Source: a virus. From it: a stretch of DNA of 64,000 nucleotides. The DNA is taken from positions 64,001 through 128,000 of IMG/VR virus record IMGVR_UViG_3300027754_000045. The stretch is one strand, 5' to 3'. Made by a program: the position numbers and the translations under genes. This document shows positions 14,645 through 40,450 of this stretch, one piece after another (the first letter of the stretch is position 1; every line of letters starts with the position of its first letter). Below the pieces are notes generated by a model, which searched no databases, was not told the origin of the DNA, and was given only the letters and a program-made list of their open reading frames with translations.

Positions 14645-14645
14645 T

Positions 14646-18494: not shown

Positions 18495-18495
18495 A

Positions 18496-19299: not shown

Positions 19300-19300
19300 A

Positions 19301-19328
19301 TTGACATTTATATTATATCGTGTATAAT
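19301..19328 (+). promoter_or_regulatory. Sigma70-type promoter TTGACA-N16-TATAAT
   Basis: Perfect hexamers in the only sizeable gap inside the glycan cluster. Confidence 0.8.
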
Positions 19329-19354
19329 ATTAAAACAGAAAGAAGATTTATGTT

Positions 19355-21348: not shown

Positions 21349-21351
21349 ACC

Positions 21352-23967
21352 ATGGAAAAAATAATAATAACAGGCGGTCTTGGTTATATTGGTTCTGAAT
21401 TATGTAAATTATATTCAGGCGAAGCTCGTTTCAAAAACATAACGGTAATTGATTCTCGTTTTATTTCTGAAAGAGTTAAACAACTCAGAGATTGGGGTAT
21501 TAATTTTGTTCAAGGATCGATTTTAGACGAATCTTTTATTTCTAGTCTTATCAAAGATGCAGATGTTGTTATTCATCTTGCTGGTATAACCGATGTAGCA
21601 TATACTAAAACCGAAGCAAATGAAGAAAAAGATATTCAAATACGCCAAATAGGAATTAATGGTACTAGAAATATTATTAAATATACTAAAAAGAATTGCA
21701 AAATTATATTTCCTTCAACACACGTTGTATTTGAGGGATTTTCTGAAACTAAAATTAATATTGAAGAAACAGAACAGCCATGTCCAATTTTGACATATTC
21801 TATTGGAAAAGCACAATCAGAAATTGATATTATTCAATCTAATAAAAATTATATTATTCTTCGTTTAGCCTCAGTATACGGTTATTCTACCGATACTACA
21901 AGAATGAATATAATGCCTAATTTATTTTCTAAAATTGCATCACAGAATGGAACAATTAGTCTTTTTTCTGGTGGAATTCAATTAAAAAGTCTGGTTCCTT
22001 TAATTGATGTGGCTAGATGTATGAAATTTATGGCAGAAAATAATATAAAGAAAGAAATATTTCATCTTTCAAAAGAAACTATGACCGTTAAAGAAGTTGC
22101 AAATATCTGTAAAGAATTTAATCCTAAATTAACTATAATAGAAACAAAAGACGAAATTCCAAATCTTGGTTATACATTATCTAATAAAAAATTATTATCT
22201 ACTGGTTTTCAATTTTTATATGATATTAGACAATGTATTAAAGAAATGATTAATAATTGGTCAATCAAAGATATAAATTTAGAATTAGAATATTTAGATA
22301 AGGGTGGTAAAGAATTTGTTGATTCTCGTGGTAAAATTTTAAATTATGAACTCACAGAACCAATTAATATGATTGGTTATATTGAATCTAAAAAAGGAAC
22401 AGTAAGAGCAAATCATTATCATCCAATTCAAGAACAAAAATGTTTACTTGTTAAGGGTCAATATATTAGTGTAATAAAAGATCTTTCAATAGAAAATGGT
22501 CAAATTGAAACTAAACTAGTAAATGAAGGTGATATTGCTATTATCAAACCAAATGTTGCTCATACAATGATATTTACAGAAGATTCAATTTTCTTAAATT
22601 TGGTTCGGGGAGAGAGAGAACATTCAAATTATGGTATTACGCATACCATTCCATATATTCTTGTAGATGAAGAAACAAAAAATAGACTTCTTTTATCATA
22701 TAAAACTTCATGTAAATCGTGTGGTAATAAACATTTAGATAGAGTTATCTCTTTAGGCAATTCACCTCTAGCAAATAATCTTAAAAATTCTATAAATGAA
22801 AATACTGAAGTATATCCACTAGAAGTTAATTACTGTTCAAAGTGTCAAAATTGTCAACTTTCTGTTGTTGTACCACCAGAAAAAATGTTTGATAATTATC
22901 TTTATGTTTCTTCTACAACATCAGTTTTCAGAAACCATTTTGAAAATGTAGCTTTACAATATATTGATGAATTTAATTTAGATAATACTTCTTTAGTTGT
23001 TGATATTGGAAGTAATGATGGTGTAGGTATTAAACCATTTATGGACAGAGGAATAAAAGTAGTTGGAGTAGATCCTGCTAAAAATATTGCAAATATTGCA
23101 AATGATAAAAATATTCCAACTATAAATGAATATTTTGATCATAGCACTGCAATTAAAATTATTGAAAAATATGGAAAAGCAAAATTAGTAACTGCGTCTA
23201 ATGTTTTTGCACATTCAGATAAGTTAGTAGATATTGCTAATAGTGCTTTTGAATTATTGGATGATGATGGTGTATTTATTGTTGAAGTTCAGTATTTATT
23301 AGATACTATAAATGATTTAACTTTTGATAATATTTATCACGAACATGTAAATTATTGGAGTATTACTTCTATTAATAATTTTTTTAATAATTTAAATTTG
23401 ATAGTTTATAAAGTAGAGCACATAGATACTCATGGTGGTTCTGTAAGAGTTTATGTAAAAAGAAATGGATGCTTAATAGAGCCTAGCGTTAATATTTATC
23501 TGGAAAATGAAAATAATTTTGGTATTAAAACCTTAAAAACATATAAAGAATTTGAAAAAAATATAATTAATATTAAAAAAATTGTAAATGAAAATTTTAA
23601 AAAATTAAAAGAAAAATACGGCACAATTGCTGCATATGGTTCACCAGCAAAAGCAACAACTTCTTTAAATTATTTTGGTATTAATAATAATTATATTGAT
23701 TATACTATAGAAGATAATCAGATGAAAGATGGTAAATATATTCCTGGAGTAAATATTCCTATTAAAAATAAAGAATATTGTATATCTAATCCACCAAAAA
23801 TTATTGTTGTTCTTGCTTGGAACTTTTTTGAACATATTAAAAATAGTAACAAAATATTATTAGACATGGGAATAAGGTTTATAAATATAAAAGAGTTACA
23901 AGATATTAATTTTAAATTAGATGATAAACCACAAATAGATACTAAGAATTTTATATATTACATGTAA
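21352..23967 (+). CDS. Three-domain fusion: SDR epimerase/reductase + cupin + NDP-sugar C-methyltransferase
   Basis: SDR GGLGYIG/YSIGK; cupin DSRG...RANHYH...AHTM; C-MTase CKSC/CSKC zinc site, DIGSNDG, NVFAH, YHEHVNY, THGGS, YGSPAKA, LAWNF. Confidence 0.88.
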   Translation: MEKIIITGGLGYIGSELCKLYSGEARFKNITVIDSRFISERVKQLRDWGINFVQGSILDESFISSLIKDADVVIHLAGITDVAYTKTEANEEKDIQIRQIGINGTRNIIKYTKKNCKIIFPSTHVVFEGFSETKINIEETEQPCPILTYSIGKAQSEIDIIQSNKNYIILRLASVYGYSTDTTRMNIMPNLFSKIASQNGTISLFSGGIQLKSLVPLIDVARCMKFMAENNIKKEIFHLSKETMTVKEVANICKEFNPKLTIIETKDEIPNLGYTLSNKKLLSTGFQFLYDIRQCIKEMINNWSIKDINLELEYLDKGGKEFVDSRGKILNYELTEPINMIGYIESKKGTVRANHYHPIQEQKCLLVKGQYISVIKDLSIENGQIETKLVNEGDIAIIKPNVAHTMIFTEDSIFLNLVRGEREHSNYGITHTIPYILVDEETKNRLLLSYKTSCKSCGNKHLDRVISLGNSPLANNLKNSINENTEVYPLEVNYCSKCQNCQLSVVVPPEKMFDNYLYVSSTTSVFRNHFENVALQYIDEFNLDNTSLVVDIGSNDGVGIKPFMDRGIKVVGVDPAKNIANIANDKNIPTINEYFDHSTAIKIIEKYGKAKLVTASNVFAHSDKLVDIANSAFELLDDDGVFIVEVQYLLDTINDLTFDNIYHEHVNYWSITSINNFFNNLNLIVYKVEHIDTHGGSVRVYVKRNGCLIEPSVNIYLENENNFGIKTLKTYKEFEKNIINIKKIVNENFKKLKEKYGTIAAYGSPAKATTSLNYFGINNNYIDYTIEDNQMKDGKYIPGVNIPIKNKEYCISNPPKIIVVLAWNFFEHIKNSNKILLDMGIRFINIKELQDINFKLDDKPQIDTKNFIYYM

Positions 23968-23982
23968 AGAGAAAGTTAAATT

Positions 23983-25227
23983 ATGCCTAAATTATGCCTA
24001 TCGATGATTGTTAAAAATGAAACTCACATTATCAAAGAATGCCTGGATTCAATCTACAAGTATGTGGATTACTGGGTCATTGTGGATACTGGTTCCACAG
24101 ACGGAACTCAAGAGTTAATTAAAAACTTCTTTGCCGAGAAGGGTATTCCTGGAGAACTTCATGAACGCCCATGGGTAGGATTCGGTGATAACCGCACAGA
24201 GGCTCTACAACTCTGCGACGGCAAGGCAGACTGGGCATGGATGATTGATGCCGACGACTATGTGGAAGGAGAGTTTCAGTTTCCGTTTAATGTGGGAGAA
24301 GTTGAAGCATTTGCTCTTGCGTTTGGTCGTGGCGAGTTCAGTTGGTGGAGAACTCAGATTTTCCGCACAGGTATTGGCTGGAGATACGAAGGCATTCTTC
24401 ACGAGTACCCAACAAAGCCAAATGTGGAAACTACTCCTCCAAAGATTGCAAAGCTGGAAGGAAAATATAAAATTGTTGCTCGCACCGTTGGAGCACGTAA
24501 TGTAGGCATTGATCCTATCGAGAAGTATAAACGGGATGCCATCATGTTGGAAGAAGTTCTGGTTAAGGAACCAAACAATGTAAGATACCAGTTCTATCTG
24601 GCTCAAAGCTATTTTGACTCTCAGCAATGGGAAAAGGCAGAAGCCGCCTACAAGAAGCGTGTAGAGATGGGTGGCTGGGAAGAAGAGCAATACTATTCAG
24701 CTTTTCGTATCGCCATGTGCCGTGGTCTTGCCAACAAGCCTTGGATCGAAATTCAGCAAGGATTCCTAGAATCCTGGGAACTTCGACCACACCGAGCAGA
24801 GCCTCTTCATCAGATTGCACGAGTCTACCGAATGATGGGTCATCCACGACTAGCCTTCTTATACGCAAAGATGGCTCTTGATATTCCGTATCCAAAGGAT
24901 GATATCTTGTTCGTCTCCGAAGATGTCTACAAGCATGCTGTTCTAGACGAAATTGCTTCCACTGCTTTCTATGCAGGAAAGCCTCATATGGGATACTCTG
25001 CCTGCAAGAAACTATTACTGGAAAACCTGCTTCCTCCAGATCAGGTTGAGCGTGTGCAAACCAATCTGAGTCAATACTTAAAGTTCTTTGAACAAAGTAA
25101 TCAAATGGAGATTATCAAGCAGTTAGATGAACAAGCCTCAAAACAAGCCGAAAAACGAGACCATAAACCTGCCCTATTTCCAGCACAAAAAAAGAACTTT
25201 AAAACTAGAAAACCAGTACATCGATAA
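23983..25227 (+). CDS. GT2 glycosyltransferase with C-terminal TPR repeats
   Basis: LCLSMIVKNE, IVDTGSTDGT, MIDADD, YEGILHE, then TPRs (RYQFYLAQSYFD, RPHRAEPL). Confidence 0.9.
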   Translation: MPKLCLSMIVKNETHIIKECLDSIYKYVDYWVIVDTGSTDGTQELIKNFFAEKGIPGELHERPWVGFGDNRTEALQLCDGKADWAWMIDADDYVEGEFQFPFNVGEVEAFALAFGRGEFSWWRTQIFRTGIGWRYEGILHEYPTKPNVETTPPKIAKLEGKYKIVARTVGARNVGIDPIEKYKRDAIMLEEVLVKEPNNVRYQFYLAQSYFDSQQWEKAEAAYKKRVEMGGWEEEQYYSAFRIAMCRGLANKPWIEIQQGFLESWELRPHRAEPLHQIARVYRMMGHPRLAFLYAKMALDIPYPKDDILFVSEDVYKHAVLDEIASTAFYAGKPHMGYSACKKLLLENLLPPDQVERVQTNLSQYLKFFEQSNQMEIIKQLDEQASKQAEKRDHKPALFPAQKKNFKTRKPVHR

Positions 25228-25230
25228 AGC

Positions 25231-25237
25231 CTAAATA
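25231..25237 (+). promoter_or_regulatory. Late promoter variant CTAAATA
   Basis: Sits 5 nt before ATG 25243 at the start of the virion block. Confidence 0.6.
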
Positions 25238-25242
25238 CACGT

Positions 25243-25653
25243 ATGACCGCAAAATACGACTTAACAATCAATAAAGGTTCTAATTTTGAGTTTTGGCTTC
25301 AGTATCAAAGAGAAGACAACACTCCAGTCGATTTAAGTGCGTATACTGCCGCACTGGTAGTTAAACGATTTAAAGGACAAGAATATCCTATTTTGTCTAT
25401 GAATAATTCTGGCTTGACTTATGGGTATAGTTCTGGAAATACTCTTGGTCTTTCTGGTTCGGGCAATATAAGTCTTAATACAGATTATGACGGAACAGGA
25501 ATTACTGGAGGAATTTCTGTAAATATCACAGCAAACACAACAAAAAAACTAACTTCAGGAAGTCATTTTTATGATTTAAATTTGATGATAGGAATTACGT
25601 ATTCTCAAAAACTTCTTGAAGGAAAGATTTTCATACAAGACGGATCACGTTAA
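25243..25653 (+). CDS. Small virion (baseplate/fibre adaptor-like) protein
   Basis: YDLTINKGSNF...PVDLSAYTA...YDL...KLLEGKIFI pattern typical of T4-like small structural proteins. Confidence 0.6.
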   Translation: MTAKYDLTINKGSNFEFWLQYQREDNTPVDLSAYTAALVVKRFKGQEYPILSMNNSGLTYGYSSGNTLGLSGSGNISLNTDYDGTGITGGISVNITANTTKKLTSGSHFYDLNLMIGITYSQKLLEGKIFIQDGSR

Positions 25654-28600
25654 TGAAACTCAAAATTCGTGAACTTTTAAATAAGGTTTTGTTTTTTAAT
25701 AAACCTCAGGAAAATATAACTAAACTTAAAATAATTGAGCAAGTTAAGTTTAATACTGTTTCAGTCAATACTGATTTTTTTGCTAATGATTTTTTTAATT
25801 TTCTTCCTACAATAACAAGTATTGCTCCAACTTCTGGTTTAGTAGCTGGAGGAACGTCATTTACTATAACAGGTACTAATCTTACTGGTACTTCTAGCGT
25901 AACTGTTGGCGGTGTTGCAGCAACCAGCGTTGCTGTTGTTTCTGGGACTTCTGTTACGGCTGTTACTCCAGCAGGAACAGCAGGCGTAAAGAGTGTTGTT
26001 CTTACTACTCCTGGAGGAACAGCCACTGCATCAAGTGCATTTACCTATATTGGCGTACCTACAATAACAACAATAAATCCTAGTACTGGTGTATTAGCTG
26101 GAGGAACACCATTTACTATAGGAGGAACTAATTTATTAAATACTTCTAGTGTAACTGTTGGCGGTGTTGCGGCAACCAGCGTTACTATTGTTTCTAGTAC
26201 TTCTGTTACCGCTGTTACTCCAGTAGGAACAGCAGGCGTAAAGAATATTGTTCTTACTACTCCAGGAGGAACAGTAACATTCTCAAGTGCTTTTGAATAC
26301 ACAGATATTGCTGTATTCCCTACAATAACAATTATTGCTCCAATTTCTGGAGTATTAGCAGGAGGAACAACCTTTGGCATAACAGGAACTAATTTATCAG
26401 ATACTTCTAGCGTAACTATTGGTGGTGTTACCGCTACTAGCCTTACTAATGTTTCTAGTGTTTTTGTTACTGCACGTACTCCAGCAGGAGCAACAATAGG
26501 CTTAAAGAATATTGCTTTAACAACTCCTATAGGAACAGCAATATCAGCAAATGCATTCACGTATATTGGCCTACCTACAATAACAAGTATTGCTCCAACT
26601 TCTGGTGTATTAGCAGGAGGAACAACCTTTGGTATAACAGGAACTAATTTATCAAATACTTCTAGCGTAACTGTTGGTGGTGTTACGGCTACTAGTCTTA
26701 CTAATGTTTCTGATACTTCTGTTACTGCACGTACTCCAGCAGGAGTAACAACAGGATTAAAGAATATCACTTTAATAACTCCAGGAGGAACAACTACTGC
26801 ACCAAATGCATTTACGTATATTGGCCTACCTACAATAACAGAAATTACTCCAAATTCTGGTCCAGTAAGCACCGAAACAACTGTAAATATAGATGGCACT
26901 AATTTATCAGGTACTTCTAGTGTAACTGTTGGCGGTGTTGCGGCAACTAATTTAAATATATTTAGCCCATTTAGCGTAGGGTGTGATTTTCCAGTAGGAA
27001 CAATAGGTGCAAAGAATGTTGTTCTTACTACTCCAGGAGGAATAACTACTGCACTAAATGCATTCACGTATATTGGCGTACCTACAATAACAAGTATTTC
27101 TCCTACTTCTGGTGTAGTAGCAGGAGGAACAACTATTACTATAACAGGTACTAATTTATCAGATACTACTATCGTAACTATTGATGGTGTTGAGGTAACT
27201 AGCTTTACTAATGTTTCTAGTACTTCTGTCACGGTTGTTACTCCAGCAGGAGCAACAATAGGCGCAAAAAATATTGTTCTTACTAATTTCGGAGGAACAG
27301 TTACTGCACCAAACGTATTTACGTATATTGGGCTACCTACAATAACAAGTATTGCTCCAGCTTCTGGCGTATTAGCAGGAGGAACGACTTTAGGAATAAC
27401 AGGAACTAATTTATCAGGTACTTCTAGCGTAACTGTTGGTGGTGTTACGGCTACTAGTCTTACTAATGTTTCTAGTGTTTTTGTTACTGCACGTACTCCA
27501 ACAGGAGCAATAATAGGAGTAAAGAATATTGTTCTTACTACTCCAGGAGGAATAACTACTGCACTAAACGCATTTACCTATATTGGCGTACCTACAATAA
27601 CAACAATAAATCCTAATACTGGTATATTAGCTGGAGGAACATCATTTACTATAGCAGGAACTAATTTATCAAATACTTCTAGCGTAACTGTTGGCGGTGT
27701 TGCGGCAACGAACGTTACTACTCTTTCTGGGACTTCTGTTACTGCAGTTACTCCAGCAGGATCAGCAGGCCTAAAGAATATTGTTCTTACTAATCCAGGA
27801 GGAACAGTTACTGCATCAAATGCTTTTGAATACACAGATATTACTATAATACCTACAATAACAAGTATTTCTCCAACTTCTGGCGTATTAGCAGGAGGAA
27901 CAACTTTAGGCATAACAGGAACTAATTTATCAAATACTACTAGCGTAAAGGTTGATGGTGTTACCGCTACTAGTCTTACTAATGTTTCTAGTGTTTTTGT
28001 TACTGCAGTAACTCCAGCAGGAGCAACAATAGGCCTAAAGAATATTACTCTAAATACTACTCTTGGAGGAGTAACATCAGTAAATGCATTTACTTATATT
28101 GGCCTACCTACAATAACAAGTATTGCTCCAATTTCTGGCGTATTAACAGGAGGAACAACCTTTGGCATAACAGGAACTAATTTATCAGATACTTCTAGCG
28201 TAACTGTTGGTGGTGTTACTGCTACTAGCCTTACTAATGTTTCTAGTGTTTTTGTTACTGCAGTAACTCCAGCAGGAGCAACAACAGGCGCAAAGAATAT
28301 TGTTCTTACTACTCCAGGAGGAATAACTACTGCACTAAACGCATTTACTTATACGGATTTTAATCTTGATTTTGCAAGAATACAAGTATTAGCAGATACT
28401 CGTATAAGTGATTTGTGGGTATTAGATACTACAAAAGCAAAACCTGTTGGTGTTGTTGCTGGGAAGTTTTATGCTCAAAGTGGCATTGATCGTTCTCAAG
28501 GAGGTTACACATCTGCTCCTAATGGAAGATTGACAAAATGGGCACAACCATTATTTTATACTCCCAGATCTATGGCAGATGTTATTAAAGGAACAACTGC

Positions 28601-31600
28601 AATTTCTGGCTTATGTGCAAGCCTAACTTATAATAAATTTGGCATTTTAAAAAATTTAAATTATTTTTATGGTGGACAGACCTCTGGTAGTGAAGGATCG
28701 GTTAATATGTCACGCCTATTGAGACTCAAAGAAGGAATAACTGGAGGAAAAAATGTAATCAAAAGACCGTATTCTTTTAATGATATTAAAACTTTTGGTT
28801 TAAGTGCAGGTCATACACTTTTTGGTAATATTAATAGTGATAAAACAGTAACTGCTGTAGCAATAGCATACAATAATCCAAACTCTTGGTCTCTAAAAAG
28901 AAATATGTTACTAAGTAGTTTAAGTCAAATTGATGAATGGCAATCTTATAGAGTTTTAAATTATTTAACACCTCTTGCTATTTCCTGGAGATTTCAAAAA
29001 GAAATCAGACAAAATAGTATAGGATTTTCAAATAATGTTTCACAAATATCTGAATCAGAACTTAACGCAGTAAATACAGATACTCTAAATCATCTTAAAA
29101 TATTATTAGACGAATATAAAGACCATTATCCGCTAGCAAGACCGAATAACGGAGTGAATAATACTCTAGGTAGTAACCAAACTTGGCGTGGAGAGGCAAC
29201 TAGTGGCTATCCTATGGGTCTGTGTGGTTCTTTTGGTGTTCGAACATCTCCATATCCGTTAGGAGCAACTCTTGATTTTATTCCTGCACTAGGAGTAAAC
29301 GGAACAACCTTAGATACTTGGTCTCCTCAAGGATGGACAGCAGATACAGGAATGTATTTATTTGACGGTTGGGGTATGAGATATATTTTAGAAAATATGA
29401 TATATTTGGACGGAGTAACATCAGTAATAGAACCAGTTACAACAACAACTCAACTTAAAGCAGATTCTTCGTGGAATAATATTCTTATAGAAGTAAAAAA
29501 ATTAATGCTTAAAGAAATTTTTGATTATGTGATACACACAGAAGAAGGAAGAGCCTGGTATGCTAAAAGAAAGTATTGGCCAGACGGTTCAGAGCGAGAC
29601 TCACTGATTTATGCAGACTCAAACCCAAATCGAATATGGACAGAACAAGCAACTGGTTTAACAGGAATTAAGTATTATTATAATCATTATTTTAATGGAA
29701 CTGGTTATTGGTATCCAGAACCAGATAATAAAGGATATGTAGGAACCAATCAAAATATTACTCCTATGGCATATCGTATGTTAGCCACAATGTATTTGTA
29801 TCCTTATATGACACTAGACAAAGAAAGAACTGCTCTTTTATCTGCGTATAATATGATGGCAGAAGAATGTGCTTCGGTGTTAGAACGATTTTTAATGGGA
29901 GTTACTTCTTCTCAAGAAAATAGTGCTGGATATTGGACGGAAGGTTGGGGATATGCTGCACAATCTATGCCAGATTTTTTGAAAATATTAACCTCTATGA
30001 AAACTATGGGAGACAGGAGACTATGGGACAAAAAGTCAACTCCAGACTATTTCAATAAAACAATACCAGGAATTTCTTATAGTTCTTGGACAAACAATAC
30101 TTGGAAATGGATCGTTAGTAGAATAATGCCAAATAATTTAATTATTAATTCTGGATCATGCAATAGTTCTGGATGGGAAACTATAGGCAACTCTTATCAA
30201 TTTACACCGTGGGGAGTGTATTTAACTGCTGTGAATGCAAGCGAAAGTCCTACTCCAGGAACCACGGGATCTGCAATTAGCGAACTTCATGATTGGTTTG
30301 ATAATAACGCAGGATACGAAGAAGAAATTGAATATTTTTACAATGTTAGAAAATATCAAGAACGTAATACATATAACGAAAAAATTAACACTCCTTGGTT
30401 TTACTCTCCAGGGGACTGTATAGTTACTTGGAAGTCGGAACACGTAATACCAAAATTTCAAAGTGATTGGACTTACGGAAATAATACAGAAAGACCTGAT
30501 GGTAAACCAGGATACGTTGTTAATAATTTTAATAAACCTTTAATTTTTGGTCTTTGGGCTAAGGGCGTAGGAGTTAGTGACGAAAAAACTAATGTTGATT
30601 GCGGTCACATTTCTGCTTATTTGGGCGACGCTGCATTACTAATAGAGACTGGTGAACCTAGACAGTTACTGGAATTTGATAATGATAAAACAAATAACTA
30701 TTTTTACGAAAGAGAAACTTTCAGGGTAAAAGGACATAATGTTATGCAATTGGGAGAAAGACTTGATTACAAGAATCCCAAATATGCTCCTTGGACTGGA
30801 GTAACATTTACCGCAACTGGTGGTAGTGCATTTTTAAATGCAACTTCAAATTATAATGTTAGACCATTAAAAATAAGTACTCCTCAACCATTGGGTGATA
30901 ATCGACCTAATCCAAAAGATGGAGGTTTTCCAACATGGGCAGAAAGTGATCCTGCCTGGGATAATGTATCTGACGGATTTTTATATCTTGCAGGAACAAC
31001 ACAAATAGCGAATACACGAGGAGGAGATACTGCACAATATTTGGCTCAATCCAGTAATATTCTTGGTGGATCAGAAACTATAGACGGAAGAGCTGGTCAA
31101 TACGTATTTGAGCCGTATCAATACCAAATAAAAACCTGCACAAGAGGTATTACCTGGGAATATTCTGCTGGTGTTGCAAAAATTAGAATTCAGGATATTG
31201 TGGGAATAAGTGCATTCAACAACAATCCATCGTTCTGGTCAGCAACTGGTCCGTATGCAACAGGACCAGACACAAGAGTATATTATCGTTTTCATACTGG
31301 ATATACTGGAGCAAACGATATAGCAGGAAATCCAAGTTCAACTAGTTGGCCATTCTTTACCACCACAGACGCAGGATTAACTTTCTTTTCAGTTTCTGGC
31401 ACAAACAACAAGACTTGGCAAGCAGCGTGGACACAACCAATACCGTATAATACAATGGCATATGATGGTGTTGTGAGCAGATTAGATTCTGTTGGTGTCA
31501 CAATGACCTTTGTTGGAAGTCAGCCAATTAAATTAACAAAAGAATTATCAGTAAATCATTCTTTTAAATATTCTTCAGTAACTAAACCAGGAATAGGAAT

Positions 31601-33194
31601 TACTGCTCCTAGTCGCCATTACGCAATTAATATTTTGTTAGGACTATCTGGTGGAGCGTTTCACGACGAGAAAAACCTTACTCTTAATACCACTATTGAT
31701 GCGGCAGTTAAAAAGAGAGATAACTTTACTATATTATTTCAAGAGGACGTTACAGTACAACAAGAAAATAAATTTAATGCACTAGGAGCAAAGAAATATT
31801 ACATAAACTCTAGAGGACTTTCTGCAGGTAGTTGGAATTTATCCCAATCAAACATAGATGCAGCTGTTGCATATTTAAAAGGAGATCTTAATGAACAAGG
31901 AAGTATGGTATTTGGTAGAGGCATAACTGCAACCAGTAAATCTTTTATATTTTTAGATTTTGAATCAACGTATGATCCTATGACTAAATCAGGAGGACCT
32001 ACTGTAGATGTCATGTTAGTTGATGGTCATACAGGACCAAATGGTTTTACAGGACCAGACGATCTTAGTTTTGATCAAACTTTACTAGATGGTCGAATAT
32101 TTGGTCAAACCTGTGCAAATAAATATTTTTATGAATGGATTGAAGGTGGAACGTCAAATAACGGCACAACATTCCACGGATTACGACATTATTTTCCAGG
32201 ATGCAGTTTTGGTAATTACGGACCACATTGGTGGTGGGGAAATAGCCAATGGTTTGGAAAAACTGATGCACAAATTGACGCACAACTAGAAATAGCCGCA
32301 AATACTCTTGTGGCTGGTTGTTCTGCTGCTTTTAAGGCATTTGATATATTTTCTCCTAGTGTTTATTCTAATGTTAATACCAGAAAATTAACCAGATGGA
32401 ATAATGCACAAAATGTAAGATTGTATAAAAAAATTAATACAATAATGGGTACCAATAAACCAATTATGCCTTGGGTTACTCCAACGTATTGGCATAATGG
32501 TACTGGTACTCCTTATACCACAGGCAACGCACCAGATGGTTATACAGGTTTCGAAGCTCAATATACTCCACCATGGACAATACTTCTAGATACTGACATT
32601 GTTTATGAAAATGCAGAACCTCTGATAGCCGAAGGAGCCGATGGAGTAATGATTTGGGGTAGTCCAGAATATAGAAGCATTCAAATACTTGGTCGTCCTG
32701 GTTGTTCGGATTGTAGTGAATTTTCGTTAATTGGTTTCGAGGGACGTACTGCGCAAGCTGTTGACGGAAAATATCAACAATGGCCATTAGATAAAGCAAC
32801 AACTCCAGGTGCAAGTCCTACTGGAATAACATTAAACGAATGGTCTTTCTTTACAGGTCAACGCCAAGCAATTTCTGCTCACGAGAACTATATAAAAGGC
32901 AGAGATATGGGTGTTACTGGTAATCGTTGGTGGTGGAAAGAAATTTCAGGTTCTACAGCGTATACACCACCAGAATGGGGAAATTTAAACACCAATCTTC
33001 AATGGAATGATGCAAATATTACTACTGGTACTACTGGTGCAGAAATAATTACAAGAACCTATAGAGATACTTTTTATAATATGGCAAAAGTAATTAAAGA
33101 ATCATACGGAACAAAAGATCAATGGATCTCTGGAATGACTGGACCAATTAAAGGTCTTACTGGTAACAGAAGAGTTAATGGAGTACAACAATAA
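25653..33194 (+). CDS. Giant virion protein: 10 IPT/TIG repeats + heparinase II/III-like lyase region + GH56-like barrel
   Basis: PTITSIxPxSG..GGT repeats; GYWTEGWGY, DCGHISAYLGDAALLIETG, GHNVMQLG; FIFLDFE, FSPSVY, GADGVMIWGS. Confidence 0.75.
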   Translation: MKLKIRELLNKVLFFNKPQENITKLKIIEQVKFNTVSVNTDFFANDFFNFLPTITSIAPTSGLVAGGTSFTITGTNLTGTSSVTVGGVAATSVAVVSGTSVTAVTPAGTAGVKSVVLTTPGGTATASSAFTYIGVPTITTINPSTGVLAGGTPFTIGGTNLLNTSSVTVGGVAATSVTIVSSTSVTAVTPVGTAGVKNIVLTTPGGTVTFSSAFEYTDIAVFPTITIIAPISGVLAGGTTFGITGTNLSDTSSVTIGGVTATSLTNVSSVFVTARTPAGATIGLKNIALTTPIGTAISANAFTYIGLPTITSIAPTSGVLAGGTTFGITGTNLSNTSSVTVGGVTATSLTNVSDTSVTARTPAGVTTGLKNITLITPGGTTTAPNAFTYIGLPTITEITPNSGPVSTETTVNIDGTNLSGTSSVTVGGVAATNLNIFSPFSVGCDFPVGTIGAKNVVLTTPGGITTALNAFTYIGVPTITSISPTSGVVAGGTTITITGTNLSDTTIVTIDGVEVTSFTNVSSTSVTVVTPAGATIGAKNIVLTNFGGTVTAPNVFTYIGLPTITSIAPASGVLAGGTTLGITGTNLSGTSSVTVGGVTATSLTNVSSVFVTARTPTGAIIGVKNIVLTTPGGITTALNAFTYIGVPTITTINPNTGILAGGTSFTIAGTNLSNTSSVTVGGVAATNVTTLSGTSVTAVTPAGSAGLKNIVLTNPGGTVTASNAFEYTDITIIPTITSISPTSGVLAGGTTLGITGTNLSNTTSVKVDGVTATSLTNVSSVFVTAVTPAGATIGLKNITLNTTLGGVTSVNAFTYIGLPTITSIAPISGVLTGGTTFGITGTNLSDTSSVTVGGVTATSLTNVSSVFVTAVTPAGATTGAKNIVLTTPGGITTALNAFTYTDFNLDFARIQVLADTRISDLWVLDTTKAKPVGVVAGKFYAQSGIDRSQGGYTSAPNGRLTKWAQPLFYTPRSMADVIKGTTAISGLCASLTYNKFGILKNLNYFYGGQTSGSEGSVNMSRLLRLKEGITGGKNVIKRPYSFNDIKTFGLSAGHTLFGNINSDKTVTAVAIAYNNPNSWSLKRNMLLSSLSQIDEWQSYRVLNYLTPLAISWRFQKEIRQNSIGFSNNVSQISESELNAVNTDTLNHLKILLDEYKDHYPLARPNNGVNNTLGSNQTWRGEATSGYPMGLCGSFGVRTSPYPLGATLDFIPALGVNGTTLDTWSPQGWTADTGMYLFDGWGMRYILENMIYLDGVTSVIEPVTTTTQLKADSSWNNILIEVKKLMLKEIFDYVIHTEEGRAWYAKRKYWPDGSERDSLIYADSNPNRIWTEQATGLTGIKYYYNHYFNGTGYWYPEPDNKGYVGTNQNITPMAYRMLATMYLYPYMTLDKERTALLSAYNMMAEECASVLERFLMGVTSSQENSAGYWTEGWGYAAQSMPDFLKILTSMKTMGDRRLWDKKSTPDYFNKTIPGISYSSWTNNTWKWIVSRIMPNNLIINSGSCNSSGWETIGNSYQFTPWGVYLTAVNASESPTPGTTGSAISELHDWFDNNAGYEEEIEYFYNVRKYQERNTYNEKINTPWFYSPGDCIVTWKSEHVIPKFQSDWTYGNNTERPDGKPGYVVNNFNKPLIFGLWAKGVGVSDEKTNVDCGHISAYLGDAALLIETGEPRQLLEFDNDKTNNYFYERETFRVKGHNVMQLGERLDYKNPKYAPWTGVTFTATGGSAFLNATSNYNVRPLKISTPQPLGDNRPNPKDGGFPTWAESDPAWDNVSDGFLYLAGTTQIANTRGGDTAQYLAQSSNILGGSETIDGRAGQYVFEPYQYQIKTCTRGITWEYSAGVAKIRIQDIVGISAFNNNPSFWSATGPYATGPDTRVYYRFHTGYTGANDIAGNPSSTSWPFFTTTDAGLTFFSVSGTNNKTWQAAWTQPIPYNTMAYDGVVSRLDSVGVTMTFVGSQPIKLTKELSVNHSFKYSSVTKPGIGITAPSRHYAINILLGLSGGAFHDEKNLTLNTTIDAAVKKRDNFTILFQEDVTVQQENKFNALGAKKYYINSRGLSAGSWNLSQSNIDAAVAYLKGDLNEQGSMVFGRGITATSKSFIFLDFESTYDPMTKSGGPTVDVMLVDGHTGPNGFTGPDDLSFDQTLLDGRIFGQTCANKYFYEWIEGGTSNNGTTFHGLRHYFPGCSFGNYGPHWWWGNSQWFGKTDAQIDAQLEIAANTLVAGCSAAFKAFDIFSPSVYSNVNTRKLTRWNNAQNVRLYKKINTIMGTNKPIMPWVTPTYWHNGTGTPYTTGNAPDGYTGFEAQYTPPWTILLDTDIVYENAEPLIAEGADGVMIWGSPEYRSIQILGRPGCSDCSEFSLIGFEGRTAQAVDGKYQQWPLDKATTPGASPTGITLNEWSFFTGQRQAISAHENYIKGRDMGVTGNRWWWKEISGSTAYTPPEWGNLNTNLQWNDANITTGTTGAEIITRTYRDTFYNMAKVIKESYGTKDQWISGMTGPIKGLTGNRRVNGVQQ
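25806..28355 (+). repeat. Ten tandem ~250-nt IPT/TIG domain repeats
   Basis: Units begin cctacaataaca (PTIT) and end (A/V)F(T/E)Y; high nucleotide similarity between units. Confidence 0.92.
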
Positions 33195-33195
33195 T

Positions 33196-33438
33196 ATGAA
33201 AGTTAAAATAAAAGAAAAATATGAAAATATATCATTTATTAATATAACTAATGTATATAATTATTCTATACTAAAAATAACAGATAAATCTAAATATATT
33301 GTTTTAATTTCTGAAATAAAAGAACCTGTATTTTTTGAAGGAGAACCAGAGGCTAATTTTATTCCAGATATTCCAGGAGGACGAGAGGATACTGATAATG
33401 CATTTACAGACGCACCTTTTCCTGCAATATTATTATAA
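33196..33438 (+). CDS. Small hypothetical protein
   Basis: MKVKIKE...LKI resembles the N-terminus of the 2513-aa protein. Confidence 0.55.
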   Translation: MKVKIKEKYENISFINITNVYNYSILKITDKSKYIVLISEIKEPVFFEGEPEANFIPDIPGGREDTDNAFTDAPFPAILL

Positions 33439-33441
33439 ATA
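33434..33441 (+). promoter_or_regulatory. Late promoter TATAAATA
   Basis: Exact consensus 4 nt before ATG 33446. Confidence 0.7.
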
Positions 33442-33445
33442 TTAA

Positions 33446-34711
33446 ATGAAACGTTTTTATAATTATTTTCAGTCTACTGAAACTCCTCCAGGATATGTGG
33501 AAGGACAGTATTCTTACGGATCTAGTTTTGTACTGAGTGAATCTTGGCATGATTACGCTCAAGGATCCGAATTTACTCTAACAGACAATGATGTTCCTGA
33601 TCGTGTTTATCGCCACGGAGTCGGTGTGGCTGCAGGACAGTTTCGTGACAGCAAAGGAAACGTGGTAGCGGTTACAGGAAACAGAAACGAATTACATAAT
33701 TTGTTTCAGTATCGCCCTCAAGAACAAACCCAATACCCAGAACCACAAACCAGAATAGAACGAGAGATTGTTCGAGAAACTGGTATTCCTGGACCCAAAG
33801 GAGAGAAGGGTGAAGACGGATGGGCTGGTCCCCAAGGAGAGCGAGGTCCTCGTGGAGATGATGGCCTTCAGGGTGTTCGGGGTCTACAGGGCATTCAGGG
33901 AGATCAGGGTCCTCAAGGGCTAGGCGGAGAACAGGGTGATATTGGTCCTCAAGGAATACAAGGCGACCAGGGTTCTCAAGGAATACAAGGACCACAGGGT
34001 GTTCAGGGAGATCAGGGTCCTCAGGGGCTGGGAGGAGAACAGGGTGCTATTGGACCTCAAGGCGAACAGGGTACACAGGGAGAACGGGGTATTCCAGGCA
34101 TTCAGGGCAAGGACGGCTCACAGGGCATTCAGGGGCTTCCTGGAGCCTCTGGCAAGGATGGTAAGGACGGCAAAACAGGTAAATCTGGACCTCGTGGAGC
34201 CCAAGGAACTCAAGGCAAGGCAGGTCCAAAAGGTGATCAGGGAGTAAAGGGAGATCAGGGTCCGATTGGTCCAGAAGGTGCTCAAGGAGCCATAGGAGAA
34301 TCGCCAATATTAACTGCCCAGTATCCTTTGGTATTAGAGGATAATGAACTAACCTTTGATCCCAAGAAAATACAAGAATTTTTATCTGGTTTAATTAAGA
34401 GCAAAAGTGACGCTGATCGAGTCTCCCATAACATGGGACTGATGGCTAGTTCTGGTGGTGGTGCAGTCGGCATCTATAAGGATAAAGCCAGAATTATTAA
34501 ATCAGTAAATGATATTAATTTTATTGGTAATAATATTGTGGTAACTCGCAAAGGCAAACAAGTTGATGTGAGTGTTACTGGAGGAGCAGCAGGAGGAGCA
34601 TTCTACGAATCCGCTACTAGTCCTATAGCTACTTTAATAGACGGAGATCGTTGGTGGAATACTAATACAGGTAGACTATATACTTGGATTGGAATTTGGG
34701 TTGAAATTTAA
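33446..34711 (+). CDS. Collagen-like fibre protein
   Basis: 58 uninterrupted Gly-X-Y triplets; C-terminal GDRWWNTNTGRLY...WVEI module. Confidence 0.85.
   Translation: MKRFYNYFQSTETPPGYVEGQYSYGSSFVLSESWHDYAQGSEFTLTDNDVPDRVYRHGVGVAAGQFRDSKGNVVAVTGNRNELHNLFQYRPQEQTQYPEPQTRIEREIVRETGIPGPKGEKGEDGWAGPQGERGPRGDDGLQGVRGLQGIQGDQGPQGLGGEQGDIGPQGIQGDQGSQGIQGPQGVQGDQGPQGLGGEQGAIGPQGEQGTQGERGIPGIQGKDGSQGIQGLPGASGKDGKDGKTGKSGPRGAQGTQGKAGPKGDQGVKGDQGPIGPEGAQGAIGESPILTAQYPLVLEDNELTFDPKKIQEFLSGLIKSKSDADRVSHNMGLMASSGGGAVGIYKDKARIIKSVNDINFIGNNIVVTRKGKQVDVSVTGGAAGGAFYESATSPIATLIDGDRWWNTNTGRLYTWIGIWVEI
33782..34303 (+). repeat. Gly-X-Y collagen repeat with internal duplication
   Basis: GDQGPQGLGGEQG(D/A)IGPQG occurs twice; locally GC-rich. 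Confidence 0.9.
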
Positions 34712-34713
34712 CT

Positions 34714-34721
34714 TATAAATA
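34714..34721 (+). promoter_or_regulatory. Late promoter TATAAATA
   Basis: Exact consensus 5 nt before ATG 34727. Confidence 0.7.
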
Positions 34722-34726
34722 CTGTA

Positions 34727-37700
34727 ATGCCAATAGAATTTACTCCTAATCCTAACGAAGGCGACCTCTACAACTACCTTGATTCAACGTGGTTTTGGAA
34801 CGGTGTTGCTTGGGATAAGGTAGATGCCACGATTACTGCGGGTGGTGCAAATGTATTCACCGCACTCAACAGATTCAGTGCAGGTATCTCTGCTTCGGGT
34901 GCAACATTCTCAGGAAACATCTCAGCACCATGTTTCAAAACCTTCACATCGGGAGTTAATGTTGATTTGAATCTGAATGTACAAGATTTGGTTGGTCTTG
35001 AAGGCGCAAAGATATCCTTTTATGGAGTAGACAGTGGTGATCCTGGTGCTACAGGGTATGGAGTTGTATTTGGTGCAAACGGAACATCGGCTATTCCATT
35101 TAGAATAACTGATTATATTGATGGCACTAATTATTTTCAGATTGATGCTAACAAAATCATTACAATAGGAGATGTTGATGGTGTTTATGGTGGCACTAAT
35201 TTATCAATAAATAATACGACTCAAACTATCGCCGTTACTGGTAGACTGACTGCATCGGGTGCAACATTCTCAGGAAATATCTCTGCACCAAACATTGTAA
35301 ACTCATGGAATGGTGCAACAGGTGCAGTGACATTCACCAACTATGTGACATCATTCAACGGCAAGACAGGTGCGGTGAGTGGTGCATCTCTTGGCGCAAA
35401 CACATTCACTGGACTCAACACATTCAATGCGGGTATTGGTGCATCAGGTGCTTCTTTTACTGGAACTGTTACTGTTCCTACACCAACCAATCTTACAGAT
35501 GCAGCAAATAAAAGTTATGTGGATTCTCTAGCATCAGGAATTAATTGGCATCAAGCAGTAACTGCATTGAGTGATGTTCAATCTGCAAGCACATATGTTG
35601 CAGGAACTGTGGGTTATGATGGAGGAACAGGTGTTGGTGCGTATATTGAAGCAAACGCAAACGGAGCATTGACTGCTGTGGATAGTGTGAATGTTGTAGT
35701 TGGCAATCGTCTTTTAATGATAGGCAGAACAAATACAATAGAAAATGGAATCTACACAATTACAAGTGTAGGTAGTGTTGGAACTAAATGGAGAATTACT
35801 CGTGCCACCGATATGGATGGTCATGATGCTGCATCTGCAATTATTGCAGGTGATGCTGTGTATGTTACAAGCGGAACAGATCATGGTGGATTGGCATGGA
35901 TTGAAACAGGCACAGGCACAGGCACAGGCGGTATTCACATCATTGGAACTGATGGAATTGTATGGACACAATTCACAGGAACAGCAACATTCACTGCGGG
36001 TGCGGGTCTCACCGCAAACGGCAGAATCATTGATGTGAATGTGGACAACTCAACCGTTGAAATTTCATCTGATATATTGCGAGTAAAAGACAGCGGAATA
36101 ACAAACGCAAAACTTGCAAACTCTAATATCACAGTCACTGCAGGAAACGGACTAGCAGGTGGCGGTTCGGTGGCATTAGGCAGTAGTGTGACCTTGACCA
36201 ACGCAGGAGTCACTGCTGCTGTGGCAGGAACAGGTATTTCGGTTAGTGGAGCCACTGGTTCTGTTACAATTACGAACACAGGCGTTCAATCATTCAACGG
36301 CAGGACAGGTGCGGTTCAAGGCGTGTCTGCTGCTGTGGCAGGAACAGGGATTTCTATCTCTGGTGCAACAGGCTCGGTTACAATTACAAACACAGGCGTT
36401 CAATCATTCAACGGTCTTACAGGTGCGGTGACAGGAGTAGCATCCGTGAACGGCAGCACAGGCGCAGTGGTTACCTATGTGGGAACAACAGGCAATATTC
36501 CTTACCGATACGGCGCAGGAGTTGGAATCACTGCAAACAGTTACTTTACTCTACAGAATACTGATATTGGTATGCCCACAGACATATTGATTCTTTCTGG
36601 TGCAACAACTGATGGTATAGAATATAGTATAGCATATGGAAACCAAGAAGCGATGGGACTAGAATTTCATCGAGCATATGCTGGACTAGGACTAGACGAA
36701 AGCGGTGGAGCCGCCATTGTGGCAAAGGGTATCTTTAATGATGGTGGTCCATTTAACTATGGAAGTAGTTTGTGGTTAGTGACTCCTTCTATTGGTGGTG
36801 GTACAATACGCCTTGCTCCTCAAGGATATGAAGTTGTTCAGGTTAGTGCGGGTAATATGAATATTAATGGATCATTAACCACCTCCTCAACAGCAACTAT
36901 CGCAGACACACTCACGGTAAGCAGTGGTGGTGGTGGTGCAGTGTTGGAGTGGGACGGCAGTCTACCTATACCAACAGTTCTCACTGTTTACGACAGCGGA
37001 ACCCCAGCAAACACCTTGACCTTGAAAGGTGATGGCACATTCTCCCAACTTACCACAAGCGGAACAATTAGTGGTGCAACAGGCGCATTCTCAAAACTGT
37101 TGACTTTGAGTGGCGGTCTTTCTGCTTCTGGCGCAACATTCGCTGGCGATATAGCCGTGAACGGTGTTCTTATTGGTCGTGGTGCAGGCAGTGTGACAAC
37201 AAATACGGTTCTTGGCGCAGGTGCTGGAGCAGCCAATACGACTGGAGCAAACAATATTTTTGTGGGATCTGCAGCAGGTGATGCGGTCACGACAGGCGCA
37301 AGAAATATTGCGATTGGATCTGATGCATTGGGTGCAGGTGTCACAACTGATTCTTGCGTTGCGATTGGATACAATGCTCTTCTGTTAAACAGAGGCAATT
37401 ATAATATTGCTATTGGTGATTCTGCATTAGATGCAAGCACCACGGGGTTTAGTAATCTTGCTATTGGAAATGATGCTTTGGGCTCATTAAACTCTGGTTC
37501 GTACAACATGTCACTTGGTTCTTCTTTACGAGCAGTAACAACTGGTCAAAATAATGTTGCAGTAGGACAATCAGCAGCAGTAACTATAACAACTGGAGTT
37601 AACAACATTGCCATTGGAACATTTGCTTTATATCAAGCAAATACATCTTCGAGTAGTAATACTGCAATCGGAAATCAAGCAGGCGGCGCAGCAAATGCTT

Positions 37701-38149
37701 CTGCAACCGTTCAAAATAATAATACATTTATTGGTGCGTCATCAGCACGAAGCATTACAACAGGCAGTCAGAATGTTGGAATCGGAATGGAATCAATTTA
37801 CGGTATTACTGGTTCTTCTAACAACACAGCACTTGGATATCAGGCTGGCAGATACACAGCCAATGGCACAACCGAACTGACCGTAACTGCTAACTCTCTA
37901 TATCTTGGATACGGAGTTCGTGGATCTACTAATTCTGTAACCAACGAAACGGCTATTGGTTATCAAGCCGTTGGTCTTGGATCCAACACCACGGTGATTG
38001 GAAACTCTAGCACAACAGCCACCACGATCTACGGAGTCTTGAATGCTCCTGGTGGTATCTCATTGTCTGCTGGTATCACATTCACAGACGGAACATATCA
38101 AACATCAAAAACACCAGACTTTTTACTTTTCAGTATGGGAATCATCTAA
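34727..38149 (+). CDS. Tail fibre / receptor-binding protein
   Basis: DAANKSYVD, ENGIYT...WRITRATDMD, VxSFNGxTGAV repeats, C-terminal NxAIGxxAL beta-roll repeats of trimeric adhesin type. Confidence 0.85.
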   Translation: MPIEFTPNPNEGDLYNYLDSTWFWNGVAWDKVDATITAGGANVFTALNRFSAGISASGATFSGNISAPCFKTFTSGVNVDLNLNVQDLVGLEGAKISFYGVDSGDPGATGYGVVFGANGTSAIPFRITDYIDGTNYFQIDANKIITIGDVDGVYGGTNLSINNTTQTIAVTGRLTASGATFSGNISAPNIVNSWNGATGAVTFTNYVTSFNGKTGAVSGASLGANTFTGLNTFNAGIGASGASFTGTVTVPTPTNLTDAANKSYVDSLASGINWHQAVTALSDVQSASTYVAGTVGYDGGTGVGAYIEANANGALTAVDSVNVVVGNRLLMIGRTNTIENGIYTITSVGSVGTKWRITRATDMDGHDAASAIIAGDAVYVTSGTDHGGLAWIETGTGTGTGGIHIIGTDGIVWTQFTGTATFTAGAGLTANGRIIDVNVDNSTVEISSDILRVKDSGITNAKLANSNITVTAGNGLAGGGSVALGSSVTLTNAGVTAAVAGTGISVSGATGSVTITNTGVQSFNGRTGAVQGVSAAVAGTGISISGATGSVTITNTGVQSFNGLTGAVTGVASVNGSTGAVVTYVGTTGNIPYRYGAGVGITANSYFTLQNTDIGMPTDILILSGATTDGIEYSIAYGNQEAMGLEFHRAYAGLGLDESGGAAIVAKGIFNDGGPFNYGSSLWLVTPSIGGGTIRLAPQGYEVVQVSAGNMNINGSLTTSSTATIADTLTVSSGGGGAVLEWDGSLPIPTVLTVYDSGTPANTLTLKGDGTFSQLTTSGTISGATGAFSKLLTLSGGLSASGATFAGDIAVNGVLIGRGAGSVTTNTVLGAGAGAANTTGANNIFVGSAAGDAVTTGARNIAIGSDALGAGVTTDSCVAIGYNALLLNRGNYNIAIGDSALDASTTGFSNLAIGNDALGSLNSGSYNMSLGSSLRAVTTGQNNVAVGQSAAVTITTGVNNIAIGTFALYQANTSSSSNTAIGNQAGGAANASATVQNNNTFIGASSARSITTGSQNVGIGMESIYGITGSSNNTALGYQAGRYTANGTTELTVTANSLYLGYGVRGSTNSVTNETAIGYQAVGLGSNTTVIGNSSTTATTIYGVLNAPGGISLSAGITFTDGTYQTSKTPDFLLFSMGII
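36213..36430 (+). repeat. 114-nt tandem duplication in tail fibre
   Basis: ctgctgctgtggcaggaacagg at 36213 and 36327; AAVAGTGISxSGATGSVTITNTGVQSFNGxTGAV twice. Confidence 0.88.
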
Positions 38150-39967: not shown

Positions 39968-40450
39968 ATGAATCGTGAAGATCTGCTCAATATCCATGAA
40001 ACCCTTACTCGCCGTGCTCGTGAACTAATGGACAAGAAAAATCGTGACTATGCAGGAAAAGGAGGAATTGAACCATTTGCTAATTTTACAAGAGTAGAAT
40101 CGATGGGTATTTGTAGCACCGAACAAGGATTTCTTTGTAGACTTACTGATAAGATGAGTCGTCTTTCTTCGTTTGCAGAAAGCGGTAAACTTGCAGTGGA
40201 AAATGAATCATTTGAGGACACAATTATTGATGTTATCAATTACATGGTTCTGTTCTATGCCTATCTTCAAGACAAGACAAGCAAGGGAAATTCTTCAGAA
40301 TATAATCCTACACAATTAATTCCCCAACAACTATTAAACGAAGCAGTAAAGAAATTCAACCGAGAATACCAAATGGAAATTGAAAAAACTATTAATGATA
40401 ATGCCGCTATGTTCGGAGATGTACGCCTTCCAACTACCAATCATAAATGA
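39968..40450 (+). CDS. DUF1599 / nucleotide-modification-associated (MazG-like helical) protein
   Basis: KKNRDYAG...PFANF...RLTDKMSRL...ESFEDTIIDVINY. Confidence 0.7.
   Translation: MNREDLLNIHETLTRRARELMDKKNRDYAGKGGIEPFANFTRVESMGICSTEQGFLCRLTDKMSRLSSFAESGKLAVENESFEDTIIDVINYMVLFYAYLQDKTSKGNSSEYNPTQLIPQQLLNEAVKKFNREYQMEIEKTINDNAAMFGDVRLPTTNHK

Follow-up and report, generated by a model that had tools for sequence, protein, structure and literature searches.

A dispersed Gly-x-Thr motif in virion proteins of a T4-like phage clade and a neighbouring GT2-TPR enzyme as its candidate modifier

Introduction

The locus analyzed here raises the question of why one tripeptide, consisting of glycine, any residue and threonine (GxT), should recur in virion proteins of unrelated fold that are encoded next to a glycosyltransferase (GT) with a tetratricopeptide-like domain (GT2-TPR). 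The window, a stretch of 64,000 nucleotides, comprises bases 64001–128000 of a single 153,850-bp contig with 36% GC (IMG/VR record IMGVR_UViG_3300027754_000045). The contig is from a T4-like myovirus; it carries a gp43-type DNA polymerase (window 40447–43020) with 47% identity to cyanomyophage polymerases, and other T4-like genes for a UvsX-like recombinase, portal, major head protein, terminase, sheath and baseplate wedge proteins. A sequence-only reading of the window had proposed that GxT, with GxS and occasionally GxC as variants, is a glycosylation sequon on which unrelated folds have converged as the acceptor for the GT2-TPR. Our analysis confirms a strong GxT enrichment that is specific to Thr, extends throughout the lineage and is under selection. 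O-glycosylation of the GxT threonines by the GT2-TPR, with glycans supplied by the adjoining sugar island, is the best explanation, to which we assign a probability of roughly 0.45.

Extent and specificity of the motif

The entire genome contains 398 GxT against 275 expected, and 269 GxS against 275. With TIG repeats excluded, the structural gene blocks contain 288 GxT where 175.6 are expected (1.64x, z of about 9 at any block size), and the rest of the genome 69 where 76.4 are expected (0.90x). The enrichment over shuffled sequences that had been anticipated for virion proteins holds for GxT in these blocks and fails for GxS, as well as for the long fibre and the collagen-like protein of the window (see below). 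The remark that replication proteins lack such a density was correct: neither the replication nor the sugar genes exceed expectation (9/13.4, observed/expected, for the sugar island).

With respect to spacing and direction, the ratios in the structural blocks are 1.64x for GxT, 1.07x for TxG, 0.85x for G-T and 0.89x for GxxT, with other gaps between 0.85x and 1.03x. With other third residues they are 0.97x for GxS, 0.89x for GxA, 0.84x for GxN and 1.05x for GxV. Across the proteome, no tripeptide is more over-represented than GIT (65 copies, 3.5x). At the motif sites, x is Ile 3.1 times as often as in the background, and Gly and Ala are each favored 2.9-fold as the following residue; x is hydrophobic at 52% of sites, versus 34% in the background, and is rarely Pro.

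Neither GxS nor GxC could be retained as a member of the motif. GxS is not enriched anywhere (175/180.5 in the structural blocks). The tetrapeptides GLCA and GLCG do occur in the giant 2513-aa protein of the window, and GVCS and GLCS in its sheath-like protein. The overall GxC excess in the structural blocks (46/26.2, 1.76x) reflects a non-directional clustering of Gly and Cys in Cys-rich domains, because CxG (42/26.2, 1.61x) and the dipeptides GC and CG (about 1.3x) are raised too. In homologs, the giant protein's four GxC sites either stay GxC or disappear, and none alternates with GxT. Thus, the suggestions that Ser or Cys serves as an alternative acceptor are not supported: GxS counts match expectation, substitution of Ser for Thr hardly ever occurs, and GxC never interchanges with GxT and has no directional specificity.

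Other origins of the signal were considered and rejected. A composition artefact is ruled out by block shuffles of 15–100 aa. In the C-terminal part of the giant protein, the GGNNNNAC pattern is found 36 times in frame, the other two frames having 4 and 1, and the motif Gly and Thr have the same codon usage as Gly and Thr elsewhere; the signal therefore lies at the protein level, and a DNA-level motif or codon bias is excluded. Collagen-like Gly-X-Y runs are not the sole cause in this phage, since enrichment of 2.1–2.9x persists outside them, and a paralogous repeat common to the enriched proteins is ruled out by the absence of BLAST similarity. Finally, the excess is not a general property of T4-like virions or fibres, as judged from Syn9 (first 50 kb, large fibre proteins included; 96 vs 92 expected) and the T4 structural proteins (75 vs 67), among which only gp36 (6/1.7) and gp37 (19/11.8) are raised.

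Distribution among the structural proteins

The structural proteins of the window that enter this comparison are as follows.

25243–25653, plus strand: 136-aa protein, small β-sandwich-like (phrog_1084; weak LtfC-like match below the cutoff)
25653–28358, plus strand: 2513-aa protein, residues 1–902, about ten IPT/TIG domains (Pfam TIG, E 9e-107, 10 stretches)
28359–31712, plus strand: 2513-aa protein, residues 903–2020, polysaccharide-lyase-like (α/α) toroid and β-sandwich (predicted model, Foldseek)
31713–33194, plus strand: 2513-aa protein, residues 2021–2513, C-terminal domain (no Pfam or NCBIfam match)
33446–34711, plus strand: collagen-like tail-fibre protein, 20% Gly and Thr-poor (Pfam Collagen; PHROG tail fibre)
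34727–38149, plus strand: 1140-aa G/T-rich fibre or tailspike-like protein (composition, PHROG)
57817–61380, minus strand: 1187-aa sheath-like protein, RCC1-like repeats joined to a phage sheath C-terminal domain (Pfam, PHROG)

The non-repetitive 1611 residues of the giant protein (its C-part) contain 36 GxT, close to the 35 or so that had been counted by eye, versus 14.8 expected (z 6.0), and none of 2000 composition shuffles reaches 36. Shuffling inside blocks of 20–100 residues gives expectations of 15.3–15.7 and the same outcome. Among all residue pairs at spacings of 1–4, GxT is by far the largest outlier; GxS (16 vs 11.6) is not significant. The sites are found in the toroid (12/4.9) and the sandwich (8/4.4), which together (residues 903–2020) hold 20 versus 9.3 expected, and in residues 2021–2513 (16/5.6). 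The TIG part (residues 1–902) contains 41 versus 25.4, an excess that largely corresponds to the GGT/GIT consensus of the TIG family itself.

Enrichment in the remaining proteins of the window is less pronounced. The 136-aa protein alone gives a weak signal (4 vs 1.7), and that of the sheath-like protein is modest (16 vs 9.0, z 2.5). The individual tetrapeptides quoted previously were all located: each of those listed for the 136-aa protein, SGAT (seven times) and GISA (once) in the fibre, and GPTG, GSTG, GVTG, GITL, GLTY and GTTY in the sheath-like protein. The strongest further cases are outside the window, in six open reading frames (ORFs) for tail, baseplate or fibre-like proteins at genome positions 21620, 27388, 38217, 41822, 43176 and 45584, each of which shows 2.1–2.9x GxT once collagen-like Gly-X-Y runs are removed. 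The enriched proteins, at least seven with the giant protein included, share no BLAST similarity with each other. The motif is indeed present in unrelated folds, as had been proposed, namely the helical toroid, the β-sandwich and fibre-like parts.

Some features of the structural genes outside the window were also recorded. Three consecutive ORFs at genome 41822–46960 (448, 803 and 458 aa) each start with a short GPT/GAT-rich collagen-like run and have Cys-rich C-terminal regions; the 803-aa protein of this group and a 619-aa protein (genome 27388) contain RCC1-like WG..G motifs. The major head protein (genome 61672–63096) has a short C-terminal extension relative to T4 gp23, ending in HGNTGFGL, and four of its seven GxT lie in poorly conserved alignment columns (135–210). 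An ordinary sheath-like ORF (genome 53471–54610) is present in addition to the RCC1/sheath protein. Just upstream of the structural module, a Cys-rich (3.1% Cys) 2210-aa ORF (genome 14119–20751) has no PHROG match and a GxT count of 16/15.6.

Conservation and turnover of the sites

Relatives of the giant C-part are scarce, with nine in a set of 5.8 billion proteins and 13 representatives among 1.84 billion; none was found in cultured phages or IMG/VR, either for the C-part or for a baseplate protein. All relatives down to 31% identity hold 2.0–2.7x GxT. Within the set of 51–92% identity, the positions of the sites are conserved while x is free (GVT/GIT/GAT/GCT at one site, GRT/GLT/GYT at another). 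Thr in GxT is more conserved than other Thr (0.67 vs 0.39; Mann-Whitney p 1e-5), the motif Gly is conserved no differently from other Gly, and replacement of the Thr by Ser is almost never observed.

In homologs of 31–39% identity, about half of the sites occur at positions without a site in the reference (own/shared counts of 9/8, 6/5, 9/7, 8/10 and 7/2), with density still at 2.2–2.6x. The number of GxT sites is thus maintained by the lineage while their positions shift. The remotest homologs (about 25% identity) have GxT at expectation (3/3.1, 1/1.8 and 1/1.2) and do not retain the reference sites; therefore, the fold does not require GxT. Two of these weakly match Pfam Hepar_II_III_C, and one is probably bacterial, because a Wzx-like flippase gene adjoins it. 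An equal frequency of the motif in GT-less phages or bacteria was not seen, whether in T4, in Syn9 or in these remotest homologs of the lyase domain. The C-terminal domain (residues 2021–2513) is swapped for other sequence in homologs P0009–P0011. Homologs P0015, P0016, P0020 and P0021 are on contigs too short for a reading of their GT context.

Fold of the giant protein and location of the sites

Residues 903–2020 were modelled with AlphaFold2 (AF2) from an alignment of 19 sequences, with a predicted local distance difference test score (pLDDT) of 63.7 and a predicted template modelling score of 0.74. The model consists of an (α/α) toroid followed by a β-sandwich. Its Foldseek matches are PL33 hyaluronan lyase (BtPL33HA), exoHep, Atu3025, PL15 and PL17 alginate lyases and heparinase II/III, with E-values of about 2e-8. 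We interpret the giant protein as depolymerase-like and tail-associated, with the TIG domains as its stalk. Short Gly-X-Y runs (GHTGPNGFTGPD) are found inside its C-terminal domain.

The 20 modelled GxT sites cap helices at either end, lie inside strands or fall in loops, rather than on surface turns as had been expected, and the regions of low confidence are not enriched. These modelled contexts do not fit any one structural role. The hydrophobic preference at x suggests that, in strands, the Thr may face outward.

These contexts bear on the alternative that GxT is a structural or assembly motif without covalent modification, with the GT2-TPR and the island acting on something else. The Gly could provide a turn and the β-branched Thr start a strand or cap a helix, or the tripeptide could be a tag for a clade-specific chaperone or assembly factor. 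The high conservation of the G and T positions, the mostly hydrophobic x (52% vs 34%), the predicted placement of sites at helix caps and inside strands, the lack of T/S interchange, the raised GxT of T4 gp36 and gp37 in a phage without such a GT, and the occurrence of GGT in the TIG consensus would all be in keeping with it. Set against this, the contexts are heterogeneous and span unrelated folds, the remotest homologs have the same fold without the motif, half of the sites relocate at 31–39% identity with density held, and GxT counts in Syn9 and in most T4 virion proteins match expectation. Furthermore, the second position after Gly favors Thr and neither Val (GxV 1.05x) nor Ser (GxS 0.97x), a selectivity that follows from no known structural rule. 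On balance, we regard a purely structural or assembly role as rather unlikely, though it is the alternative to be taken most seriously.

The GT2-TPR enzyme

The elements upstream of the giant protein that concern the enzyme are listed below.

10999–23967, plus strand: low-GC sugar-nucleotide/glycan island (Pfam: GT10-like, two DUF5672, two SDR epimerase/dehydratases, DegT aminotransferase, SDR-cupin-C-methyltransferase fusion)
23880–23887, plus strand: T4-type late-promoter-like TATAAATA, 103 nt upstream of the GT2-TPR start
23983–25227, plus strand: GT2-TPR glycosyltransferase, 414 aa, candidate protein O-glycosyltransferase (Pfam GT2 and TPR, Foldseek)

The 414-aa enzyme matches Pfam Glycos_transf_2 (E 1.2e-12), with weak Pfam TPR matches at residues 184–304. 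In the AF2 model (pLDDT 84), a helical TPR-like domain (residues 178–389) is continuous with the GT-A domain, and no membrane segment is predicted. The IDADD motif (D89, D91 and D92) does not vary among 33 homologs; the IDAD of GmaR, ThuS and SunS aligns with it. These three, if a designed TPR protein is set aside, are the only sequence matches in the PDB, with GmaR being the best (E 4.7e-9), and they have in common with the enzyme the motifs NE...DTGStD...IDAD followed by a helical continuation. Foldseek aligns the model to ThuS (7msk) and SunS (7msn) over about 400 columns with an E-value of 6e-15, and the next matches, the wall-teichoic-acid GTs TarS and RmlT, are seven orders of magnitude weaker (1e-7). 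The enzyme is a relative of SunS and not a SunS equivalog. With regard to the proposal that this GT2-TPR modifies the GxT proteins, the SunS/ThuS-type fold and the conserved synteny described below are established, and glycosylation itself is what we infer.

At E ≤ 1e-5, the enzyme has more than 7400 metagenomic matches, of which the top 120 have identities of 60% or higher. A GT homolog is carried by 14 phage records, and Syn9 and T4 are not among them. A small Cys-rich gene resembling a glycocin precursor was not noticed at 21352–25653, where no dedicated short-ORF search was made.

Conserved gene order and the variable sugar island

One gene order is found in seven loci with GT identities of 61–98%: the window and its relatives L007, L008, L009/L010, L021, L023 and L024/L025. 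A variable sugar island is followed by the GT, a protein of about 135 aa, large phage-specific proteins, and then a dUTPase or DNA polymerase. In the window, the GT gene (ending at 25227) is succeeded by the 136-aa gene (starting at 25243) and then by that of the giant protein; this order is repeated in the six further loci. The GT and the ~135-aa gene are fixed while both flanks change content. The islands of the relatives include NeuB with a thiamine pyrophosphate-type (TPP) enzyme, a dTDP-sugar isomerase with a TylF methyltransferase, sulfotransferase-like, GT11 and GT25 genes, and others, with NeuB-type nonulosonic-acid genes in L007 and L021. The GC content of the window island is 0.24–0.34 and drops to 0.24–0.31 in its interior.

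The motif follows the same boundary in the relatives. With collagen runs and TIG parts removed, six pooled loci have 35/47.0 GxT (0.75x) in the upstream sugar genes, 20/8.0 (2.5x) in the ~135-aa proteins (window, L007, L008, L009, L021 and L023) and 352/203.4 (1.73x, p 2.5e-21) in the downstream large proteins, where GxS is 1.12x; L024 shows the same upstream/downstream pattern. The ~135-aa family, with orthologs in the six other loci, has one invariant G-x-T-[YV]-G and one mostly conserved G-x-T-G-G. Co-occurrence of the motif with the GT cluster, which had been put forward as a test, is seen in these seven loci of one clade; in phage Tunturi_5 it does not extend beyond collagen runs, and two megaphage loci, uninformative in this respect, show none within 20 kb, as discussed below.

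In relatives, the cassette after the ~135-aa gene includes Laminin_G_3 and Pect-lyase_RHGA_epim proteins (L024:9167–9991 and 13356–14921; L008:15708–17234), and it seems to collect carbohydrate-binding or carbohydrate-cleaving tail proteins.

The octamer TATAAATA is located 26–152 nt upstream of the GT ortholog in four of the seven loci. In the window, it also occurs at 33434, 34714, 56907 (minus strand) and 61401 (minus strand), a few bases before the structural genes starting at 33446, 34727, 56892 (minus strand) and 61380 (minus strand), respectively. It is not enriched overall (13 vs 8.7). Its placement weakly suggests late expression of the GT.

The island also invites the explanation that the GT2-TPR and its neighbours modify the host envelope (lipopolysaccharide (LPS) O-chain or capsule, for superinfection exclusion) or phage DNA, with an unrelated cause for GxT. 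In pelagimyophages, a hypervariable host-recognition cluster mixes tail fibres with LPS-type GT and sugar genes, and modification of the host O-chain is favored (PMC7029224). The GT10, DUF5672 and SDR genes of the window island are typical of polysaccharide pathways, and DNA-hypermodifying phage GTs are known. The enzyme itself argues otherwise: it is not a polysaccharide-type GT2, its full-length structural relatives are peptide glycosyltransferases, sequence comparison adds only GmaR, which transfers O-GlcNAc to flagellin, and its model has no predicted membrane segment. Moreover, it alone is invariant beside an island of otherwise variable content, and it borders the GxT-rich proteins; an envelope or DNA target would also leave the motif itself unexplained. 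We consider an envelope or DNA target improbable. A different Thr modification (phosphorylation, acylation or cross-linking) by another phage or host enzyme is very improbable: the statistics require only a Thr-specific function, and host-dependent methylation of phage tail proteins has been reported (PMC13445384), but no candidate enzyme is seen beside these genes, whereas a protein-type GT and a sugar pathway adjoin them.

Comparison with known glycosylation systems

For O-glycosylation of GxT by the GT2-TPR, the closest precedent, by analogy, is SgtA of Clostridioides difficile, a 358-aa protein with a GT-A domain and four TPRs whose gene is immediately upstream of bclA3. SgtA adds β-O-linked N-acetylglucosamine (GlcNAc) to Thr of the GPT collagen repeats of BclA3, accepts Ser in vitro, and its product is extended by further sugars (PMC7157674). 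The resemblance, judged by architecture and size alone, extends to an N-terminal GT-A domain with C-terminal TPRs (358 vs 414 aa). Both enzyme genes are directly upstream of a substrate gene (a candidate one in the phage), the acceptor Thr is, or would be, two residues after Gly and usually followed by Gly, and genuine GPT/GAT runs are present in the phage ORFs at genome 41822 and 43176. In contrast to BclA3, the phage sites are mostly isolated tripeptides in globular or fibre folds, with x mostly Ile, Val, Leu or Thr instead of Pro, the putative target proteins are many, and the system is viral.

SunS and ThuS are the best full-length structural matches of the phage GT and share its EPxN-helical continuation. 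Their identity to it is 16–19%, however, no glycocin precursor gene was seen nearby, and the Cys of a small peptide on which SunS acts contrasts with the putative phage acceptors, which are threonines of large proteins. Cytoplasmic flagellin O-glycosylation by a GT joined to substrate-binding TPRs is the activity of GmaR of Listeria monocytogenes and FlmG of Caulobacter (PMC9638930, PMC7591256); the FlmG system also involves NeuB-type nonulosonic-acid genes, as in the islands of L007 and L021. In these systems the substrates are flagellins of one family, no G-x-T sequon has been defined, and the domain order of FlmG is reversed. Virion glycosylation by phage-encoded GTs has been described for mycobacteriophages, whose capsid and tail-tube subunits are modified at their C-termini (Freeman et al. 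2023, PMC10527164); this C-terminal location of the glycans and the actinobacterial hosts differ from the present case.

The proposed mechanism and the evidence against it

Set beside the observed motif statistics, conservation and turnover, enzyme fold family and synteny, the proposed mechanism would operate as follows. GxT, often in the form G-[I/V/L/A/T]-T-[G/A], is maintained at high density by selection in the outer virion proteins of the clade, among them the giant lyase-like protein associated with the tail, proteins of baseplate and fibre type, and the small protein of 136 aa. We infer that the enzyme acts on these proteins with the GxT Thr as its site: in the cytoplasm of the infected cell, the Thr would serve as the O-glycosylation acceptor, the TPR-like domain would hold the protein substrate, and the conserved GT2-TPR of SunS/ThuS/GmaR/SgtA type would attach the first sugar. 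The hypervariable upstream island would then supply and extend a strain-specific glycan.

A number of results weigh against this mechanism. In the window, the 1140-aa fibre, which had been named as an enriched target, has 27 GxT where its composition alone predicts 24.3, and the collagen-like protein is depleted (1 vs 4.0). The phage motif is confined to Thr, whereas SgtA also uses Ser in vitro. In the enzyme-like fold, many sites hold their positions strongly and lie in helices or within strands; a purely structural role would look no different. The best NCBIfam match of the enzyme is the SunS family (TIGR04195 equivalog), at 42.4 bits versus a cutoff of 350 and over residues 2–95 only. For similar islands, the pelagimyophage literature proposes modification of the host O-chain (PMC7029224). 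Co-occurrence of GT and motif is phylogenetically confounded, because all GT-bearing loci with a dispersed GxT excess belong to one clade, and no clade member without the GT was found for comparison. Among independent lineages, two megaphage loci with GT homologs have no GxT signal within 20 kb. The Tunturiibacter phage Tunturi_5 has a GT homolog of 37% identity with an adjoining nucleotidyltransferase gene, and its 1469-aa tail fibre gp29 (L018:24813–29222), located 4 kb from the GT homolog, has 79 GxT versus 30 expected; about 330 residues of GPT/GAT collagen triplets hold all of this excess, with 13 versus 11.5 outside. Outside the clade, the association with the GT is seen only in this collagen form.

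Implications

The broader statement, that a clade of abundant aquatic T4-like phages coats its outer virion proteins with strain-specific glycans, with one SunS/SgtA-like enzyme reading a minimal dispersed G-x-T(G/A) and the hypervariable island setting the glycan, is tentative, and we consider it possible but short of an even chance. If true, phage virion glycosylation would have its first defined sequon, as would a cytoplasmic TPR-GT with many unrelated protein targets, and an O-glycosyltransferase family of poorly defined specificity would gain a short acceptor rule. The motif statistics alone constitute a cheap genomic marker for such systems. The “LPS genes” beside tail fibres in marine T4-like phages would then be open to reinterpretation. 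A very widespread group of environmental phages would carry variable glycan coats on its tail fibres, baseplate and depolymerase-like proteins, with a bearing on host recognition, protection from proteases and grazers, the stickiness of virions in aquatic environments and phage-phage competition.

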